Sequence record: LC739536.1
Reading direction: 5' to 3' (one strand)
DNA length: 64,000 nucleotides
Source: Escherichia phage phiWec187
Positions 2,095-61,004 of the stretch are shown piece after piece. Both the position numbers and the translations under genes were made by a program. Positions within the stretch are counted from its first letter, which is position 1. Every line of letters starts with the position of its first letter. Under the pieces are notes generated by a model. The model worked only from the letters and a program-made list of their open reading frames with translations, did no database searches and had not been told where the DNA came from.

Positions 2095-3581
2095 TGGCAG
2101 ATTATGGTTTAACAGATGCTGGTTTTGTCATTCCAACGTTTGATGATATTTTAAATAATTATATGACAGCATTGAAAAACACTTTCGGTGCAGATACAGC
2201 TACATCTGAAGATACTGTCTTTGGTCAACTGTTTCGTATTATTGCATATACAGATTACACCCTTTGGGAAGGTATGCAAGGTGTTTACAATACCCAAACC
2301 TTAGATGGTGCAGAAGGTATTTATCTTGATGAAATTTTCTCTAAAAGGGGTTTTTATCGTAAAGCTGCTTCTGCTGGTAGTGGTTATGCTTATGTTAAAT
2401 CTAACAATAAGGCAGCTTGGACTTATGAGCTAAGCACAGATGTTTATTTTAATGCCGATAACGATTTGACATATTATGTCAGTGCACCAACAATGTTGAA
2501 TGCTAAGATTGGAGCATATACCATTTCTAAAGCAAACGCAACAGCTTCTGGTGAAACTTCTATTACTTTCTACATTCAAAGTGCTATTGACGGTGGTCTT
2601 AACAGTAAAACACTAAGTCCTAGCAATACAAACTTTATTTTAGATCTCACGAATTTCATTAAAGCTAACGTATCAACAACAGATCGTGCTTTAGTATGGA
2701 ATGATGCTAGTAATGTTTACATGGGTTATAATCCAGAAGATAATGTTAACCCAATAGGTTTAGTAACACCAGTGAAATTTTACGCATCTATTGCAATAGG
2801 TACAAAATGGAGTGAAATTCCAGTTACGTGTTCAGACGTTGGTTATAATCCAGTAGGTACAGAAAGTATCACAGGTATTTCTTCAACGTTTACAGGCTTT
2901 TTAGATACAGGTAACTTCTATCCATTCTCTCCAGGTACAGATGTTGAAACAGATGCAGAATTCCGTTCTCGTTTCAATGATAATATGGATGAAGCTAATG
3001 CTGCTACTCGTGCTGCTATTGTTAAAGCTCTGCTACTGACAGATGGTGTGACAAAGGTTAAGATTTATGATAACCCTACATTACATGATCAGGAACATGC
3101 TCCAGCTATGACATTCCAGACTATTGTGTATGGTGGTACAGCAGAAGAAGTTGCACAGGTTATTTATAATACTAAACCTATTAACACCTTAACCTATGGT
3201 ACAACAGCAATTACTATCGTAACAGAAGATGGCGGTCAAGAAGTAATTCGTTTTTCTCCTGGTGACAATGCTGAATATTCACTTAAACTGATATATCAAA
3301 CTGGCAATGGTAGTGTGTTAAGTACAACAGAAAGAGAAAATATTGTTTCTGCTCTTTCAAACCTACAGGCTTATTTTGAGTTAGGGTCAACAGTAACTAA
3401 CGATCAGATAAAAGGTGTAATTTATTCTGCACTTGCGTTCGGACGCTTGACTTCTCTCCGTGTTTATGTTAAACTTAATACTGAGGATGACAGTAAATAT
3501 AATGAGGGAGATATCACTCCAGCGTACAATGTTGTACCATCCTTTGACCTTGATAATATTTCCTACGAGTACGGAGTCTAA
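2094..3581 (+). CDS. putative baseplate protein (gpJ/gp6-like position)
   Basis: 495-aa ORF directly upstream of the fibre genes, translationally coupled; assigned by position only. Confidence 0.4.
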   Translation: MADYGLTDAGFVIPTFDDILNNYMTALKNTFGADTATSEDTVFGQLFRIIAYTDYTLWEGMQGVYNTQTLDGAEGIYLDEIFSKRGFYRKAASAGSGYAYVKSNNKAAWTYELSTDVYFNADNDLTYYVSAPTMLNAKIGAYTISKANATASGETSITFYIQSAIDGGLNSKTLSPSNTNFILDLTNFIKANVSTTDRALVWNDASNVYMGYNPEDNVNPIGLVTPVKFYASIAIGTKWSEIPVTCSDVGYNPVGTESITGISSTFTGFLDTGNFYPFSPGTDVETDAEFRSRFNDNMDEANAATRAAIVKALLLTDGVTKVKIYDNPTLHDQEHAPAMTFQTIVYGGTAEEVAQVIYNTKPINTLTYGTTAITIVTEDGGQEVIRFSPGDNAEYSLKLIYQTGNGSVLSTTERENIVSALSNLQAYFELGSTVTNDQIKGVIYSALAFGRLTSLRVYVKLNTEDDSKYNEGDITPAYNVVPSFDLDNISYEYGV

Positions 3582-54445: not shown

Positions 54446-55573
54446 ATGAAATACACGATTTATGGTGATATTGTAAGTGTAAATAAAGATATGGGCGTGG
54501 AATCTAACTATCTTCCACCTGGATTCTATACTGTTAGTCGTGATCCCCTTGGCAATTATTTTTTAAGCCGTGGTAATCTGACAGGTGTACCGGATGTTCT
54601 GTATGGTGAAACAGAAAAACGAGCAAATCACGTTATCCGTACATTCCATCGCCGGAGTGCACAAGGTAAAAACACAGGCTTGCTTCTGACAGGAACTAAG
54701 GGCAGTGGTAAAACTATGTTAGCCAAACTCATTAGTCGTGACCTTGTAGAAGAAGGTATTCCAACTATTATGGTTACTCAAGCCTACAGTGATGCTAATT
54801 TCATTGAACTTATTAGCAAGATCACCGACAAAGCAGTGATTATTTTTGACGAGTTTGATAAAGTGTATGAGAAGAAACAAGATCAAGAAGCACTTCTCAC
54901 TTTGTTAGATGGTACTGGCAGTGGTAATAAACTGTTTATTCTGACTAAAAACAGTGGTTTTATTTCTGAATTCTTTTTAAATCGTCCTAGTCGTGTGTTT
55001 TATAATTTTAATTATGATAAAATCTCACTAGAAACTATGATTGACTATTTAGATAAAAACCTAGATAACAAAGCACACTTTGATAATTTCCAAAGACTTT
55101 GGGATGTAAGTTTAGAGTTGTCCTTTGATGTGATCCAAGGTATAGTAGAAGAACTTAATTTCTACCCTGATTTATCCTTTAAAGAATGCATCTCTATGAT
55201 GGGCGTTTCTTTGGGTGGTGGTAATAAGTGGGATATCAGCAGCGTTGTTATTAATGGGAAACTTCAGAAAGTTAGCTGGGTATCTAGTTGGCATAACTTC
55301 ACACCTGCAATCTTTTTAGGTGGTTCGTGCACACTGGACGTGTACTTGTCATCTCCAAGTGATGCAGATTCTAAAGAAGCCCTTGCTAATAGCTCTTACG
55401 TGGTTTTTGATGATGAAGGCGATGCTCGAATTCCATTGAATGCGACAAAAATGAAAGCAGATCTTATTACAGGCGGTAAAATCGTTGTGTTTAGTGATGA
55501 TCCAGAAGATTCTTTCCGTATTGTTCTGGAACCAACTATCACCAATGGTGCAACTTTGGCAAGTGTGTTTTAA
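54446..55573 (+). CDS. P-loop ATPase, paralog 2
   Basis: Walker A GTKGSGKT, Walker B IIFDEFDK; homologous throughout to 37782-38942; terminator follows. Confidence 0.6.
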   Translation: MKYTIYGDIVSVNKDMGVESNYLPPGFYTVSRDPLGNYFLSRGNLTGVPDVLYGETEKRANHVIRTFHRRSAQGKNTGLLLTGTKGSGKTMLAKLISRDLVEEGIPTIMVTQAYSDANFIELISKITDKAVIIFDEFDKVYEKKQDQEALLTLLDGTGSGNKLFILTKNSGFISEFFLNRPSRVFYNFNYDKISLETMIDYLDKNLDNKAHFDNFQRLWDVSLELSFDVIQGIVEELNFYPDLSFKECISMMGVSLGGGNKWDISSVVINGKLQKVSWVSSWHNFTPAIFLGGSCTLDVYLSSPSDADSKEALANSSYVVFDDEGDARIPLNATKMKADLITGGKIVVFSDDPEDSFRIVLEPTITNGATLASVF

Positions 55574-55587
55574 GTAAGCCAGCAAAT

Positions 55588-55612
55588 AAAAACCCGCTCC
55601 GGCGGGTTTTCT
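55588..55612 (+). terminator. rho-independent terminator
   Basis: aacccgc-tccg-gcgggtt followed by tttc. Confidence 0.6.
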
Positions 55613-55647
55613 TGTATTGATGCCAGATTTAATAAAAGGAGTAGTAG

Positions 55648-56637
55648 ATGGCAGCACCAAAATCATGGGAACAATATAAAGAAGAGTGTATACCAATAGC
55701 AGAGAGTAAGCAAATCCAAATCTTAGGATGGACGGGACAATGGAAAGGGGTCCACACAAAACTTGATTTGTTGTGCCATTGTGGTTATAAATGGGATACT
55801 ACAAGTATTAACAGTTTTAAATGTGGTAGCGGTTGTCCACAATGTAGGAGGAAGAATATAAGGAAGTCACAAACAATGTCCGACGATCAACATATTGCAG
55901 ATTTCTTTTCTACAGGGAAATTTAAGGAAGGCACTATCTTCACTAACACAGGAACACGGGGTAAAGGATGTAGGAATATTATCTGGATGGTTGAATGTCC
56001 TGTTTGCTCTCATGATGAATATGTTCAAGCAGGTGTTTGTGATGGTAAATTTTACTCTGAAGGAGATAACCTTAAACGAGGGTATATTCCGTGTCGTTGT
56101 GGGAACTATCGGTATACAGAAGACCAGATCACCTATAGGGTAAAAAAGGAAGTAGAAGGGAAAGGGTATGTCTGGGTAGATTGGATTACCAAACCCTCTT
56201 CTATAGGTAAGTTTAAATATCTTTGTCTTGTGCATGGGGAGCAGATAGGGAGTGCTCATAATTTATTAAGCCTCGGTCGAGGTTGTCCTATGTGTGCTGG
56301 TCATAGTCAGCAGCAGTTATATATTAATATTGTTAAGGATGATAATATTATAGTTGCTCTTAAGTTTGGTATAGCTAAAGATAGTGATAGACGATTAAAA
56401 ATTCAAAATAGCCGTAATATGTTTCCTATGGAGCGTATTTGTTTATATGATTTTAGCACAGTAAAACAATGTAAGGCTGCTGAAAGAGCTATAAAGAAAA
56501 AATTAAAAACTGGTATTTTAACGGAAAGAGAGTTGAAAGACGGTTATACAGAAACAGTAAGTGTTTCTGATTTGGAAAATCTTCAAAAAATTATTACACA
56601 ATATGGTGGCAAATTAGTATACAGTAAGGAGATGTAA
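55648..56637 (+). CDS. zinc-ribbon-rich protein, possible nuclease
   Basis: Repeated CxxC pairs (CGSGCPQC, CPVCSH, CRCGNY, GRGCPMC); C-terminal YINIV...KFGIAKD is weakly GIY-YIG-like. Confidence 0.35.
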   Translation: MAAPKSWEQYKEECIPIAESKQIQILGWTGQWKGVHTKLDLLCHCGYKWDTTSINSFKCGSGCPQCRRKNIRKSQTMSDDQHIADFFSTGKFKEGTIFTNTGTRGKGCRNIIWMVECPVCSHDEYVQAGVCDGKFYSEGDNLKRGYIPCRCGNYRYTEDQITYRVKKEVEGKGYVWVDWITKPSSIGKFKYLCLVHGEQIGSAHNLLSLGRGCPMCAGHSQQQLYINIVKDDNIIVALKFGIAKDSDRRLKIQNSRNMFPMERICLYDFSTVKQCKAAERAIKKKLKTGILTERELKDGYTETVSVSDLENLQKIITQYGGKLVYSKEM

Positions 56638-57189
56638 ATGCGGATTACTGATAAGTATGTGTTCTTCTTTTCAGCAAAAGATGAATTTAGCAACTGGTAT
56701 CTATCATCTTTTATTGAACCTTTAGCACCCAAGTATAATAATTCTATTACAAGTTCTGTTGAATTTACTTGTGTGGAACAATATATGATGTGGAGAAAAG
56801 CATGTTTGTTTTATGATTACAGTATTGCATCTTCTATTTTAACCGGAGATCTAAGATATACAGGAGAAAAAGAACAAGCATATTATAAGCGACTAGGCAG
56901 ATTAGTTAAAGATTATGATGAAGATACCTGGACTTCTTTACGGGAGAAGATTGTCAAACGTGGTTTGTATCTTAAATACACACAAAATGAAGATCTCAAA
57001 AATAAACTTATAGCTTACGCAGATAAGGAGTTTGTAGAGGCAAGTCCTTATGATTCTATTTATGGTATCAAAATGGGGATGTGGGATCGGGACGTGGAAA
57101 ATAAGGATTGTTGGAAAGGACAAAATCTTTTAGGAAAATGGCATACAGACCTTGCTGTTTATCTAAAAGCCCACTCTGATATTTCCTGA
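56638..57189 (+). CDS. NADAR-domain protein (YbiA-like)
   Basis: FFFS...FSNW, EQYMMWRKA, EASPYDSIYGIKMG and GQNLLGK blocks match the NADAR/YbiA pattern. Confidence 0.6.
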   Translation: MRITDKYVFFFSAKDEFSNWYLSSFIEPLAPKYNNSITSSVEFTCVEQYMMWRKACLFYDYSIASSILTGDLRYTGEKEQAYYKRLGRLVKDYDEDTWTSLREKIVKRGLYLKYTQNEDLKNKLIAYADKEFVEASPYDSIYGIKMGMWDRDVENKDCWKGQNLLGKWHTDLAVYLKAHSDIS

Positions 57190-57405
57190 TATTTTGAAAA
57201 TTTTTATTTTTATAAAAAGGGGTGTGGGTTTCATGTACGGAAATTCACCCTCTGAATAATATATTCAGAGTAAATATTATTTTGTACTCTGTTAATAAAC
57301 TATTTAATTTGTTTGTTGGATTATGATATCTGGTTTTTAAAAGGCATACTATCTCTTAACTACTATTTATAACAGAACAGTAAAATCATTTTTATAAAAA
57401 GGACA

Positions 57406-57610
57406 AAATTATTTAAAGTTTTTACAGATTTTTGGATACAAATTTTGAAAATGAAAAGTTCAAGTTTGGTCAAAATTATTTAAAGTTTTTGTATGTATTT
57501 CTATCCAGATTTTGAAAATGAAAACTTCAATTTTTTAAAAATTCCCCAGTTTATTTAAAGTTTTTTTGCCTTTTTCCGTAGAAAAATCAAAAATGAAAAG
57601 TTCAATTTCG
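57406..57610. repeat. three tandem ~65-75-bp direct repeats
   Basis: Each unit carries tatttaaagttttt then, about 20 nt later, tttgaaaatgaaaagttcaa. Confidence 0.7.
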
Positions 57611-57629
57611 TGTTTTTATAGGTGTGCGT

Positions 57630-57745
57630 ATGATAATCATTCTCATTTGTAAATGAGAATGATTATCATTTAATTATGTAAGTGATAATCATTCTCACTA
57701 AGAGAATGAGAATCATTAGCAAATGAGAATTTTTCTCATTTATAG
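57630..57745. promoter_or_regulatory. cluster of Fur-box-like palindromes
   Basis: Perfect 19-bp inverted repeat atgataatcattctcattt / aaatgagaatgattatcat (57630-57669) containing AATGATAATCATT, an exact 13-nt match to the core of the E. coli Fur box GATAATGATAATCATTATC; two more partial copies to 57745. Confidence 0.5.
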
Positions 57746-58001
57746 AATAACGCGCAGGGGTGGTGTTTGTCTCGCGCTCCCGTGTCCCCTCGCCATACAA
57801 TAAGAATAGCATAACTAACAACAAAAGCAAGCAATTATTTTTATCTTTACATTTCTTTACAAATTTATTTTAGACGAGCTACCGGCGATCAACCTTCCAA
57901 CCAGTGCCCCCTGGTATGTTAGCCCCGCCTTTACGCCGTGGGGTGGCGTTTCCTCTTCTGTATGTAAAACAGTATAAGCCCGATCCCTGGGCTTGTCAAG
58001 A

Positions 58002-58268
58002 TTATTTTTTGTTTTCTTGCCAGGATAGGACACCTAACCAAAAATACATGTCGCCCCGCGCCCCTGGCGGGATCTTGCTTTCCCCGCCGCCACTGCAAGC
58101 CCATAGATAACCATTAGCGAACGGATCAAAGTGATCTATTTCTTCCACCTTATGATCGCCCAGGTTGAGAACGGTTTCAACCTTTAAGCCCGTTGCGCTT
58201 GCTACCTGGTGCGCCGTGCCGCCTTGCCAGCCTAATGAGTGCATGAGGTGTAGAGTAGTATTTGTCAT
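58002..58268 (-). CDS. hypothetical small protein encoded in a GC-rich island
   Basis: 88-aa ORF with its own promoter and 5' hairpin-RBS architecture (gcgcc-ctggtt-ggcgc, then caaagaaaggg...ATG); GC content far above the flanks. Confidence 0.45.
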   Translation of the reverse strand: MTNTTLHLMHSLGWQGGTAHQVASATGLKVETVLNLGDHKVEEIDHFDPFANGYLWACSGGGESKIPPGARGDMYFWLGVLSWQENKK

Positions 58269-58315
58269 GGTATCGCCCTTTCTTTGATGTGCGCCCTGGT
58301 TGGCGCGGTAGAAAG

Positions 58316-58344
58316 ATAATAGCCCTTTCCTTTATAGATAGCAA
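58316..58344 (-). promoter_or_regulatory. sigma70-like promoter for the 58268 gene
   Basis: Minus-strand TTGCTA, 17-nt spacer, TATTAT. Confidence 0.45.
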
Positions 58345-58380
58345 GCAAAAAAAAGAAATGAAAAAAGATTAAAAAAGGGG

Positions 58381-58409
58381 TTGACGTTCCTCACCTGGTA
58401 GCGTATTAT
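58381..58409 (+). promoter_or_regulatory. sigma70-like promoter (divergent partner)
   Basis: TTGACG, 17-nt spacer, TATTAT. Confidence 0.5.
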
Positions 58410-58536
58410 TCATCTTGTCGAGGGGGGCGAGGCACAACGACAATAAACAAAAGGAGGGCGCAATGTAGGACGGGCAAAGGTGAGGATCTCCATAATCCAC
58501 CGTCACAATAACATTACTTATAAAAGGTTGATAACG

Positions 58537-58632
58537 ATGATCAAGAAAGAAAACAGCTTGACGGTTGGAACGATTAACGCTATCATTCTTGCCGTTCCAT
58601 TTTGGATTGTAGTTGCGGTTATTATTTTTTAA
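58537..58632 (+). CDS. small hydrophobic peptide (31 aa)
   Basis: MIKKENSLTVGTINAIILAVPFWIVVAVIIF; below the ORF-track length cutoff; weak RBS. Confidence 0.3.
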   Translation: MIKKENSLTVGTINAIILAVPFWIVVAVIIF

Positions 58633-58640
58633 AAATATTC

Positions 58641-58668
58641 TTGACAACGTTTTTTAATCTGATAAGAT
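58641..58668 (+). promoter_or_regulatory. early promoter
   Basis: TTGACA, 16-nt spacer, TAAGAT; followed by the 58681-58696 hairpin. Confidence 0.6.
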
Positions 58669-58720
58669 GTATCACATAGGGCGGCAATAGTGCCGCTCAT
58701 AACAGAAGAGAGAAATAATC

Positions 58721-58993
58721 ATGGCATCATATAGCGCATCAATGATCGTAATGGGCATCACTGGTAAACCTATGCGCGGTGGCGGATCTTTCGCTAACAT
58801 CAATATTGATGGGCGTTTATCCCTGGATGCAGCGATCACCGTGGCACGGGAAACATTTAAAAAAGAATGCAATTTCAATAAACAAGATTATCTCGGTTTC
58901 GCTATTGAAAAAACCGCGCGCTTTGTGGATTATAAAAGCCCGAAAATGATCGACACTACACTAAAAGCGCAAGATGTAGCGTTTTTGCTTTAA
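58721..58993 (+). CDS. early protein, hypothetical
   Basis: 90-aa ORF with promoter, 5' stem-loop and RBS. Confidence 0.5.
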   Translation: MASYSASMIVMGITGKPMRGGGSFANINIDGRLSLDAAITVARETFKKECNFNKQDYLGFAIEKTARFVDYKSPKMIDTTLKAQDVAFLL

Positions 58994-58996
58994 GGC

Positions 58997-59024
58997 TTGA
59001 CACTGAAAAATAATTTAGTAATAT
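58997..59024 (+). promoter_or_regulatory. early promoter
   Basis: TTGACA, 16-nt spacer, TAATAT; hairpin ggcgggg...cccgcc at 59036-59057. Confidence 0.6.
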
Positions 59025-59079
59025 ATACCACGTAAGGCGGGGAAATGATTTCCCGCCAAATCAAAGAAAGGGTAATGCA

Positions 59080-59442
59080 ATGAGCAAGCAAATCAATACT
59101 ATCATGTTTAATCTGGTATCTTTCCGCGATGACGTGAAAAACCTTTCGCGTGATGCAGTGGATGCACGGATCGAAAGCTATCGCACACAGATCGCAACGT
59201 TACCGCTGAAACGTGATCAACATGCCGCTAATATGATGCTTGATGCTATGATTAAAAAGATGATTCAATGTGATCTTACCCTGGCTTATGAATATGCTGG
59301 CGATCTTTTTGTAACGTATAATAAGCCCGTTCCAGGTATGAGCACCACGGAAGAATTGCATGCCTTAAATCTGCGACAAGATGCATGGGATAACATGCGC
59401 CGTGTTATGGTATGGGTAGAAAGCGGTAAAATTTACGAATAA
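59080..59442 (+). CDS. early protein, hypothetical
   Basis: 120-aa ORF with promoter/hairpin/RBS. Confidence 0.5.
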   Translation: MSKQINTIMFNLVSFRDDVKNLSRDAVDARIESYRTQIATLPLKRDQHAANMMLDAMIKKMIQCDLTLAYEYAGDLFVTYNKPVPGMSTTEELHALNLRQDAWDNMRRVMVWVESGKIYE

Positions 59443-59448
59443 AAACGG

Positions 59449-59476
59449 TTGACATTGCACTAAAACCTGATAAGCT
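59449..59476 (+). promoter_or_regulatory. early promoter
   Basis: TTGACA, 16-nt spacer, TAAGCT; hairpin gcgggaa-ttg-ttcccgc at 59485-59501. Confidence 0.55.
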
Positions 59477-59520
59477 ATCTTAAAGCGGGAATTGTTCCCG
59501 CTTACATAGGATAAAACTTT

Positions 59521-59667
59521 ATGAAACAATATGTAATGAGTATTCACACCAAAAACGGCGCTACTGTTACGACTCCGGCACGGTTTGCACTTGTAAACCG
59601 CTGCAAGAGACTAAAACGAGAGCTAAAAAACAACCGTGCAACGGGCTTTAAACGCTGGGGAGGATAA
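59521..59667 (+). CDS. early small basic protein (48 aa)
   Basis: MKQYVMSIHTKNGATVTTPARFALVNRCKRLKRELKNNRATGFKRWGG; below the ORF-track cutoff. Confidence 0.4.
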   Translation: MKQYVMSIHTKNGATVTTPARFALVNRCKRLKRELKNNRATGFKRWGG

Positions 59668-59669
59668 TC

Positions 59670-59930
59670 TTGTTTTTTCTAAAAGTTTTTGATAATGTGA
59701 TCGCTTTTGAACATGCTACAACGTTCGACCTGGCGAGATACGCTATCAGGTTTAAAGATAATGTTTATCCCCGTGCTGGCGGCGGTTACACTATTTTTAA
59801 TCATCGTAACGCTCAATTAACGGATATAACTAATCCAGGCCCTGGAGTGTATCGCATAGGCTGGCTACCGTCAAAAGACGCGGCAAGCATGTTTAAGGTA
59901 TGTAAACTACTAACAGAAGAGGCGAACTAA
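59670..59930 (+). CDS. early protein, hypothetical (TTG start)
   Basis: 86-aa ORF starting at TTG 8 nt after GGGGAGG, translationally coupled to the preceding small ORF. Confidence 0.4.
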   Translation: MFFLKVFDNVIAFEHATTFDLARYAIRFKDNVYPRAGGGYTIFNHRNAQLTDITNPGPGVYRIGWLPSKDAASMFKVCKLLTEEAN

Positions 59931-59931
59931 C

Positions 59932-60486
59932 ATGGGGCGTGAATATGTGATCCAGTCCTGGGTAAAGCATGATGCTAATGATCCGCGCATAATACCAGAT
60001 GACATGATCGATCACATGGTAGGGTATAGCGGGGAGCAGATAGGAAATCGAGCGGCAAAGAGCAACGGCAACACAAAGGCGCGATCCGTTCGCCCTGGTT
60101 GGCTGGCAAATGGTAACGCTGACATTGCAAGCGCCGCAGATCCAAGCGATGACGCTAAAAATAATCCCTTATACAGCATTGATCCGGCTTTTAAGGTGTT
60201 AGAAGAATATCCCGCTAAATTAGCCGCACTAGATAAGGCATACGAAGAAAAGCGCATGGCATGGACTGTATACAACACCGCTAAAATGGTGCTAGATGCA
60301 AAATTGATTAAAGCCCAGGAGAAGATCAATAAACTTGTTGCAGTAGCGCAAGAGGAAGACCAGGACGACCAGGAGGAAGAGGAAGAAATCATGCCTACCC
60401 TGGAAGAGGAAGAGATCCAGCCATACACGCCGACAGAAGAGGAAAAAATACAAGCCTTAAAAAATTATAAAAATTGTATTGTGTAA
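59932..60486 (+). CDS. early protein with highly acidic C-terminus
   Basis: 184 aa; EEDQDDQEEEEEIMPTLEEEEIQ tail. Confidence 0.45.
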   Translation: MGREYVIQSWVKHDANDPRIIPDDMIDHMVGYSGEQIGNRAAKSNGNTKARSVRPGWLANGNADIASAADPSDDAKNNPLYSIDPAFKVLEEYPAKLAALDKAYEEKRMAWTVYNTAKMVLDAKLIKAQEKINKLVAVAQEEDQDDQEEEEEIMPTLEEEEIQPYTPTEEEKIQALKNYKNCIV

Positions 60487-60489
60487 GGC

Positions 60490-60518
60490 TTGACATATGC
60501 AAACAAGCCCCGTAATAT
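60490..60518 (+). promoter_or_regulatory. early promoter
   Basis: TTGACA, 17-nt spacer, TAATAT. Confidence 0.55.
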
Positions 60519-60567
60519 GTACCACATAGAGCGGGGCAACCCCCTCAAAGGTGAAATAAAAAATCAC

Positions 60568-60595
60568 TTGACAACTGAAATCAGTAAGCTATAAT
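60568..60595 (+). promoter_or_regulatory. early promoter with consensus elements
   Basis: TTGACA, 16-nt spacer, TATAAT (both hexamers perfect). Confidence 0.65.
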
Positions 60596-60632
60596 GCTTA
60601 TATAAATTAAAGCGTTACTAAGGAATAAAATC

Positions 60633-60998
60633 ATGGCTAAAAATATCAATGTTTCTGCTTATGCTACCCTGGCTAACACTGCTAAAATTGAACTATCCAG
60701 CATTGAAGCGGTACATATTAGCGCCCGTCGCTGGTTTCAAAAGTCTTATGGTAATACTTATTTCTCTTTGATGGTTGACGTTGAGATCGGCGGTAAACTG
60801 ATTGAAGTCGTTAACGTTCCGTTTCAATATGGTTATGGTGATCATTTTGATACCGTCGCCCTGGAAGAGTTTAGCAAGGTTATCAACCTGGAAGGTAAAG
60901 ACTTTTCAAATTATGCTTACCTTTCCCGTTTTTGCCGTGATAATGGGATCGCTGTATACAGTCATGCAAGCGATGTTAAACGTAAAAAAGATTTATAA
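60633..60998 (+). CDS. early protein, hypothetical
   Basis: 121-aa ORF downstream of tandem promoters. Confidence 0.5.
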   Translation: MAKNINVSAYATLANTAKIELSSIEAVHISARRWFQKSYGNTYFSLMVDVEIGGKLIEVVNVPFQYGYGDHFDTVALEEFSKVINLEGKDFSNYAYLSRFCRDNGIAVYSHASDVKRKKDL

Positions 60999-61004
60999 AA
61001 AGCA

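Follow-up and report, generated by a model that had tools for sequence, protein, structure and literature searches.

Several replicons initiate DNA replication from origins that depend on transcription. The primary origin of phage T7 combines the promoters 1.1A and 1.1B with an AT-rich region, the T4 origins oriF and oriG combine a middle promoter with an unwinding element, and ColE1 uses RNA II. Here, we describe a locus in Escherichia phage phiWec187 (LC739536.1) with a similar layout. A GC-rich island at positions 57740-58345 of the 64,000-nt stretch analyzed (hereafter the window) contains a conserved, structured noncoding element, referred to as the core, which is located between a small minus-strand gene for an 88-aa protein and AT-rich DNA with repeats and palindromes, and which is probably transcribed toward the latter.

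A noncoding RNA is already known from Pectobacterium phage phiTE, in which pseudo-ToxI, with the escape locus at 106,714-106,772, mimics the RNA of a type III antitoxin (PMC3475682). The genome paper on phage rV5 described an unassigned "non-coding" box, and the origin could not be located (PMC3606486). Myoviruses of the rV5-like and phAPEC8-like groups are widely isolated and represented in phage-therapy collections, and their origin and regulatory RNAs are undefined.

Conservation of the island in two phage subfamilies

A sensitive DNA search with the island identified matches at the same position in 238 phage records from two subfamilies, the Stephanstirmvirinae and the Vequintavirinae. Escherichia phage vB_Eco_PATM is 99.1% identical over 1.5 kb around the island, and many Justusliebigvirus phages (Stephanstirmvirinae, ~147 kb) are 96-98% identical over the same length; judged by these identities, the window is from a Justusliebigvirus-type E. 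coli myovirus. The Vequintavirinae matches were obtained from Klebsiella phages (Mydovirus), Cronobacter and Pectobacterium phages (Certrevirus, including phiTE), Salmonella and Cronobacter phages (Seunavirus) and Erwinia phages (Henunavirus). In this subfamily, the match shrinks to positions 105-229 of the query, which correspond to 57844-57968 (~125 nt), with 80-88% identity and under no annotation. Only 57625-58009 of the region 55000-61000 could be aligned to the DNA of the Vequintavirinae loci (5-14 kb), and one of eight flanking proteins of the window has a homolog there, with 29-31% identity. No other noncoding DNA at the locus is conserved as well as the module, which occurs in sources ranging from enterobacterial isolates to contigs of soil metagenomes; its conservation is established. 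The order of the elements is also shared: plus-strand genes, lineage-specific repeats, palindromes resembling Fur boxes, a GC-rich block, the core, an optional minus-strand open reading frame (ORF) and early plus-strand promoters.

The first-pass annotation, made from the sequence of the window, had pointed to a compositional break at the island and suggested recent acquisition. The break was confirmed. The GC content of 57740-58345 is 48.2%, as compared to a window mean of 37.7% (z = 3.6), a value reached by 0.15% of the 606-bp windows, and the GC-richest of all such windows is 57875-58480. The AT-richest DNA of the window (57255-57504, 20% GC) adjoins the island. The GC content at third codon positions is 0.53 in the ORF for the 88-aa protein, as compared to 0.29 +/- 0.07 in 45 long ORFs (z 3.65), so that the island is distinguishable from the rest in codon usage as well. 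Such atypical values would be expected of recently acquired foreign DNA with a GC content reflecting the donor, and the Vequintavirinae that carry the module have GC-richer surroundings. Nevertheless, we consider an origin of this kind extremely unlikely. The island is present and syntenic in every relative examined across the two subfamilies, and no integrase, flanking repeats, insertion scars or mobility genes were found at its borders in the window. The 88-aa protein is only ~50% identical to its Certrevirus counterpart, and only in the N-terminal part. The island is also absent from E. coli, with zero matches in 5,426 genomes; nine of ten pattern matches in bacterial genomes failed the covariance model described below, and the tenth was a 4-kb contig of a type identical to the phage, so that a host origin was rejected. 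Finally, functional blocks that are invariant are interspersed with loops and promoter spacers that have diverged freely, which argues for purifying selection rather than recent transfer. These alignments identify the island as a module long conserved in rV5-like and phAPEC8-like phages and not as recently acquired DNA, and it exemplifies how a GC-rich stretch in an AT-rich genome can mark constraint instead of foreign origin.

A covarying hairpin in the structured core

The core consists of 93 nt, with a predicted start near 57963-57965 (Table 1). Read 5' to 3' on the minus strand, it contains a purine-rich leader, a CGCC/GGCG stem, a CCCC/GGGG stem, a hairpin named H1 and a near-invariant tail. 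A covariance model was built from an alignment of 33 distinct sequences and recovered 73 copies, of which 56 were distinct. The copies come from contigs of phages and metagenomes, among them contigs of ~147 kb sampled from soil and rhizosphere.

Covariation in H1 is established from the 56 distinct sequences. The pair between alignment columns 29 and 51 is A-T in 37 sequences and G-C in 19, with zero mismatches; columns 31 and 48 hold C-G (49) or G-C (7), and columns 28 and 52 hold C-G (51) or G-C (4). Changes on both sides were observed in five of the seven H1 pairs. The proportion of paired cells was 92.7%, as compared to 83.5% in shuffled alignments, and the covariation score was 0.221, as compared to 0.077 after shuffling and 0.03-0.10 when the partners were slid; none of 500 shuffles reached either observed value, although these counts should not be read as probabilities because the sequences are related by descent. 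There are also lineages with an entirely different, unrelated hairpin at the position of H1. Compensatory changes in the core exceed what column composition would produce, the generic mark of a structured noncoding RNA, and by this measure the core is a candidate of that class. The earlier suggestion of a structured RNA in 57740-58000 has thereby held up.

The two stems that precede H1 cross each other and lie in the 3' half of the core as read on the plus strand. An H-type pseudoknot in this part of the core is plausible. The CCCC/GGGG stem is changed to CCAA/TTGG or CCAG/TTGG in Erwinia-type and "type B" lineages, and one of its pairs is C-G in 40 sequences and A-T in 14, with a single mismatch, after a register shift of one column. 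Besides the stems, ~40 nucleotides of the core are nearly invariant and predicted to be unpaired, including CTACCGGCGATYCACCTT. Some of the invariant segments could also pair in other ways (CGGCG with CGCCG at 57934-57938, and GGC with GCC).

The core did not correspond to any element described previously. Rfam gave no match to the core in 55000-61000 at E up to 1, and for 57740-58010 at E up to 10 only three chance-level matches, with 14.7-16.5 bits as compared to thresholds of 40-50, so that the covariance-model search proposed in the first-pass annotation returned no known family for the flank. A literature search and a text search with the exact sequence were without result, and the module is unannotated in the GenBank records examined. 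The element is accordingly undescribed in Rfam, in these records and in the searchable literature, and we regard it as a conserved noncoding regulatory element of phages. A tRNA, tmRNA or tRNA remnant was rejected, since ARAGORN was negative in the window and in nine related loci, and so was a small peptide encoded in the core, since neither start codons nor reading frames are conserved.

Klebsiella phage FKP3 (L029, 2620-2710) and Escherichia phage A5-4 (L024, 2386-2476) each have a type B allele of the core that stands alone. It retains the tail and both short stems, lacks the CCACCTTCC segment and has ATAGCCG...CGGCTAT in place of the hairpin, and it might represent a co-converted or endonuclease-immune allele. 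In Klebsiella phage vB_Kpn_K45PH128C2 (OY978796; L005, 2362-2515), a tRNA-Met and a tRNA-Ile are annotated over the palindromes and the GC-rich block (element A), with a tRNA-Lys annotated nearby. ARAGORN finds zero tRNAs anywhere in this locus, and these annotated features therefore look misplaced.

Table 1. Features of the island, listed in the direction of the minus strand, with positions in the window.
Feature	Positions	Strand	Sequence or character	Basis
Promoter of 88-aa protein gene	58316-58344	minus	sigma-70 type, TTGCTA-17-TATTAT	promoter scan
Leader hairpin of 88-aa protein gene	58291-58306	minus	GCGCC...GGCGC, between promoter and ribosome-binding site	read from sequence
88-aa protein gene	58002-58268	minus	conserved phage protein	ORF list
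Promoter P1	57971-57999	minus	TTGACA-17-TATACT, 11/12 matches, A-rich stretch upstream	promoter scan and conservation
Hairpin in P1 spacer	57976-57994	minus	GC-rich hairpin followed by T-rich run	called as terminator by scan
Core (RNA-1)	57873-57965	minus (probable, from P1 and HNH insertion)	conserved structured core	covariance model, 109.5 bits
Possible H-type pseudoknot	57923-57948	minus	CGCC (57934-57937) with GGCG (57945-57948); CCCC (57923-57926) with GGGG (57940-57943)	partial covariation
Hairpin H1	57898-57918	minus	CAACCAG...CTGGTATG, bulged A57916	covariation
Near-invariant block	57873-57897	minus	predicted unpaired; plus strand GACGAGCTACCGGCGATCAACCTTC	alignments of 33-56 distinct sequences
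CTTTACA boxes	57845-57862		two boxes, 10 bp (one helical turn) apart	conserved in nearly all homologs
Promoter P2	57803-57830	minus	TTGCTT-16-TATTCT	conserved position
Element A	57750-57797	minus	GC-rich block: GGCA, GGTGTTTGTCTC, CCGT, CGCCAT	conserved in alignments, just downstream of P2

Two conserved leftward promoters

The promoter P1, which begins directly after the stop codon of the gene for the 88-aa protein, was recovered in 57 of 58 distinct homologs, with conserved hexamers, a variable spacer sequence and a spacing of 17-18. The -35 hexamer is TTGACA in 24 homologs, TTGCAA in 14 and TTGACG in 14, and the -10 hexamer is TATACT, TATATT or CATAAT. The second promoter, P2, lies beyond the core, and of 38 distinct sequences, nearly all have a similar site with a good match at the corresponding position (TTGCAA, TTGATC or TTGACC with TATATT, TATTAT or GATAAT). 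Conservation of these promoters is likewise established, and by their hexamers, spaced at 16-18 bp and kept while the spacer drifts, P1 and P2 are sigma-70 promoters as far as can be read from DNA.

The spacer of P1 is always GC-rich (65-88%) and almost always forms a hairpin with arms that change together; the 37 distinct versions that fold form 5.9 pairs on average. GNRA loops (GCAA, GAAA or GTAA) are present in eight of these 37 versions on the minus strand, as compared to one on the plus strand. The tail that follows contains 6-8 T among 12 positions in many lineages and only 3-4 in others. Thus, one and the same hairpin seems to terminate the upstream mRNA and to serve as the spacer of the following promoter. 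Promoters of the Certrevirus-type homologs of the 88-aa protein gene (TTGACT-17-CATAAT; L004 at ~3010-3050, L015, L122) also have GC-rich, hairpin-capable spacers, and the hairpin-in-spacer design therefore appears to have been used more than once at the locus. The rightward early promoters in the window are of another design, without a hairpin in the spacer.

The pair of CTTTACA boxes between the core and P2 occurs once in the window, and a single box is not enriched, so that CTTTACA was rejected as a general phage promoter. Downstream of P2, no shared fold was obtained for element A, for which the possible pairings differ between lineages. The first part of element A (57750-57768, ACGCGCAGGGGTGGTGTTT) shares 79% identity with the stem region of the core at 57933-57951 (ACGCCGTGGGGTGGCGTTT), 183 nt away, which could be due to an old partial duplication or to chance.

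The transcribed strand

The evidence on the transcribed strand is divided, and we favor the minus strand for the core transcript. Both P1 and P2 point leftward. No plus-strand promoter was found consistently across lineages, and the one in the window lacks a -35 hexamer; a plus-strand promoter within the Fur-like boxes was rejected since the picks are inconsistent between lineages. By our own inspection, the loop lengths would suit a classical H-type pseudoknot only on the minus strand.

An inserted gene points in the same direction. In a Klebsiella-phage-like contig (IMG/VR UViG_2974574029; L019, 6296-7190), a minus-strand gene for an HNH endonuclease of 197 aa (phrog_953, E 8e-79; no Pfam match) is inserted inside the invariant block of the core. 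The gene follows directly after the core and has its own ribosome-binding site, with no promoter of its own. CCRGCGAT repeats flank the gene, and its cassette brings in a second P1 together with a variant core, so that the unit next to the boxes is again complete. A second locus (L028, 2305-2587) retains a remnant of the same arrangement, with a deletion.

The first-pass annotation had placed the structured element downstream of the Fur-like sites. With P1 and P2 on the minus strand pointing toward those sites, this order is probably incorrect.

Palindromes and repeats beyond P2

The region 57625-57745 contains a cluster of palindromes based on ATGATAATCATTCTCATT, with seven matches at three mismatches or fewer, as compared to 0.16 expected, and none elsewhere in the 64 kb. 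The proximal box is a 9-1-9 palindrome, AATGA(G/T)AATCATTCTCATT, and is near-invariant across phages; a group of environmental contigs (L077, L086, L105) has different palindromes in this region. The segment 57626-57644 matches 15 of 19 positions of the E. coli Fur consensus in our own alignment. These boxes lie downstream of the start of P2 and not upstream of the core.

Further to the left, inside the AT-richest DNA (20% GC), 57388-57608 contains three direct repeats of ~70-79 nt that are 71-73% identical. Phage phiTE has a different repeat, GGGTCTCGATC, in many copies at the equivalent place. These repeats look like lineage-specific iterons.

The 88-aa protein and its gene neighborhood

The homology search suggested for the 88-aa protein was informative: the protein matches phrog_19316 over its full length (E 2e-58) and has 14 homologs in a large protein collection, all without a Pfam domain. 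Homologous genes were also identified by tblastn in related phages, which bears out the earlier prediction of a minus-strand gene. The N-terminus is conserved (LGWQGGTxHQVAxxTGL), and conservation of the N-terminal 36 residues extends to phiTE_079 of phage phiTE. The predicted structure is all-helical, and a role as a helix-turn-helix protein that binds the palindromes was rejected, with support from neither the fold nor a profile match. The gene had also been credited with its own promoter and a leader with a hairpin and a ribosome-binding site. Both features stand: the hairpin is visible in the sequence, and a promoter-like site is kept ahead of the homologous gene in most relatives, with the -35 types TTGCTA, TTGACT, TTGACC or TTGACA, and with poor scores in a few.

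The island is located in a 1.5-kb gap (57190-58720) with plus-strand genes on both sides. The left neighbors code for an AAA ATPase, a CapR/T5orf172 protein and a NADAR (YbiA-like) protein, and to the right is a series of small genes, each preceded by a strong sigma-70-like promoter. The gene two positions to the left (55648-56637) contains a CapR homology domain and a weak T5orf172 domain, and its length differs among close relatives (978-1398 nt). In Justusliebigvirus records, the ORF for the 88-aa protein is annotated as "hypothetical protein" and the DNA to its left at most as "repeat_region".

Discussion

We rank first the reading that the core is part of an early, leftward, structured noncoding RNA that runs toward the Fur-like palindromes and the AT-rich repeats; the chances that its RNA part is correct are, in our judgment, about evenly balanced. 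Transcription by the sigma-70 RNA polymerase of the host would begin at three promoters, all on the minus strand. The first would give the mRNA of the 88-aa protein, ending at the GC-rich hairpin that is also the spacer of P1. From P1, a noncoding transcript would start near 57964 with its purine-rich leader, and the first ~95 nt would fold into a short pseudoknot-like 5' domain, followed by H1 and the near-invariant single-stranded tail. The transcript would then cross the two CTTTACA boxes and P2 and continue into the palindrome cluster and the AT-richest, repeat-bearing DNA. The core would act as a functional structured RNA, with its invariant nucleotides read by a protein or by another nucleic acid. 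A covarying helix combined with many invariant unpaired nucleotides looks like such an RNA rather than an antisense seed or a mere primer. In our view, the core RNA would most likely serve the adjacent origin-like region, through activation by transcription, as a primer or as a regulatory transcript.

Several findings weigh against this reading. The transcript and its ends are deduced from sequence, with a prediction for the start only, and the core is not followed by a terminator on the minus strand. P2 is weak in the window, with 7/12 matches. The CGCC/GGCG stem is invariant in all sequences and informative neither way, and the CCCC/GGGG stem is broken in two sequences (L125 and L118). The first-pass annotation had described the flank (57740-58000) as lacking an ORF and as rich in GC hairpins: no conserved ORF was indeed found in 57740-58001, but the hairpins are not unusually stable, with minimum free energies at z -0.2 to +1.5 relative to shuffled sequences on either strand. 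Thermodynamic stability was rejected as evidence of structure, with z near zero on both strands, and the reality of the flank hairpins rests on covariation and not on folding energy. The covariation fits a hairpin in single-stranded DNA equally well. Counts of G-T wobble pairs favor the plus strand, 99 as compared to 20. Most of this excess stems from two positions at the ends of helices, where pairing is not required, and in the minus-strand reading the helix would have four pairs in a shifted register. No link of the AT-rich repeats to replication was found, as DnaA boxes are not enriched and the GC skew, which simply follows gene orientation, is uninformative as an origin marker.

The closest rival is that the leftward transcripts mainly fire a replication origin, with tandem promoters feeding a purine- and G-rich RNA into an AT-rich unwinding region, where it would form a persistent hybrid or a primer. 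It overlaps with the favored reading and differs in that RNA folding would be relevant to hybrid formation alone. The tandem promoters P1 and P2 are conserved and directed at the AT-richest 250 bp (20% GC), with its three ~70-bp direct repeats and the palindrome cluster. The minus strand is G-rich in the flank (GC skew -0.12 to -0.19), the transcript would start with a purine tract, phiTE carries a different repeat set of its own in the equivalent position, as initiator-specific iterons would, and the HNH cassette keeps the order of promoter, core, boxes and palindromes. We nevertheless regard this as possible and rather doubtful, since a simple primer should have no use for a covarying hairpin and ~40 invariant nucleotides, a gene for a replication initiator was not found among the neighbors (the AAA ATPase, CapR/T5orf172 and NADAR genes), neither DnaA boxes nor skew gave a signal, and no origin has been mapped in these phages, including rV5, for which the genome paper could not locate one (PMC3606486). 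Promoters that lead into an AT-rich repeat region match an origin as an anatomical resemblance only.

Other rivals give the conserved blocks a different role. An iron-regulated small RNA of the RyhB kind could be transcribed from the plus strand, starting at a promoter that the Fur-like boxes overlap, crossing element A and the core and ending at the CGCC/GGCG hairpin with its pyrimidine tail. This would account for the excess of wobble pairs on the plus strand (one pair is G-T in 42 sequences, A-T in 9 and G-C in 1), for the weak terminator-like hairpin called by the scan at 57933-57949, for the match of 57626-57644 to the Fur consensus in our own alignment (15/19) and for a TTGAAT-18-CAGAAT promoter that brackets the palindrome in some Vequintavirinae. 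However, Fur-regulated small RNAs have a promoter on their own strand under a Fur box, and here the plus-strand picks differ by lineage and lack a -35 hexamer in the window. The terminator stem has only 4-5 pairs, with a mixed C/T tail instead of a U run, element A has no conserved fold, in L019 the plus-strand 5' part is missing from the copy that retains P1, and Rfam gives no match; we find this reading quite improbable. Scarcely likelier to be wrong, and to us highly improbable, is that the element acts as DNA, whether as a single-stranded hairpin that signals priming or assembly, as a site bound by a protein or simply as the target of a homing endonuclease, maintained through gene conversion. 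The covariation of H1 cannot tell RNA from single-stranded DNA, and the HNH gene is inserted exactly within the invariant block, with the type B allele either accompanying it or standing alone, as in FKP3 and A5-4. On the other hand, promoters at a fixed distance upstream argue for a transcript, the minus-strand GNRA loops in the spacer hairpin of P1 indicate selection at the RNA level nearby, and a homing target would explain the use of the block but not its conservation in the many phages without the endonuclease.

A more far-reaching form of the favored reading, in which a leftward structured RNA is made from P1, is highly speculative and in our view has little chance of being correct. Here, the core would be a new class of phage RNA, an aptamer-like pseudoknot transcribed from a terminator-embedded early promoter that gates the firing of the origin, with the Fur-like palindromes coupling it to the iron status of the host or to a phage repressor. 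The module offers a precise target of ~95 nt, with its two promoters and a covarying hairpin open to disruption and repair, for studying how these phages begin replication or regulate early expression.

Comparison with known systems

Like pseudo-ToxI of phiTE, the core is a noncoding RNA element, as we read it, in a phage group that carries the module. An identity of the two was rejected, since the module homolog in phiTE is located at 39.6-39.85 kb, at another locus, and tandem 36-nt repeats were not found. With RyhB-type RNAs, the locus shares palindromes resembling Fur boxes beside a small structured noncoding element. It differs in that the conserved promoters are on the other strand and beyond the element, with the boxes downstream of the starts, and the core has neither an Hfq-type terminator with a U run nor sequence similarity.

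The possible pseudoknot of the core would resemble the preQ1-I riboswitch aptamer, a small H-type pseudoknot RNA, in having two stems of 4-5 pairs, a loop 1 of 1 nt, an A-rich loop 3 of 6-7 nt and a position at the 5' end of the transcript. Unlike that aptamer, the core lacks a downstream gene and an expression platform, and Rfam gave no match to it even with E up to 10; in this comparison, one core stem is invariant and the other has exceptions.

The anatomy is closest to that of the transcription-dependent origins of T7, T4 and ColE1, with one or two promoters directed into an AT-rich stretch, an RNA rich in G and purines, and adjoining repeats and palindromes. In contrast to these origins, the phage locus has no mapped origin or identified initiator, and its promoters are of the sigma-70 type of the host. 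And unlike the primers of those systems, the RNA predicted here would carry a covarying hairpin and long invariant single-stranded blocks.

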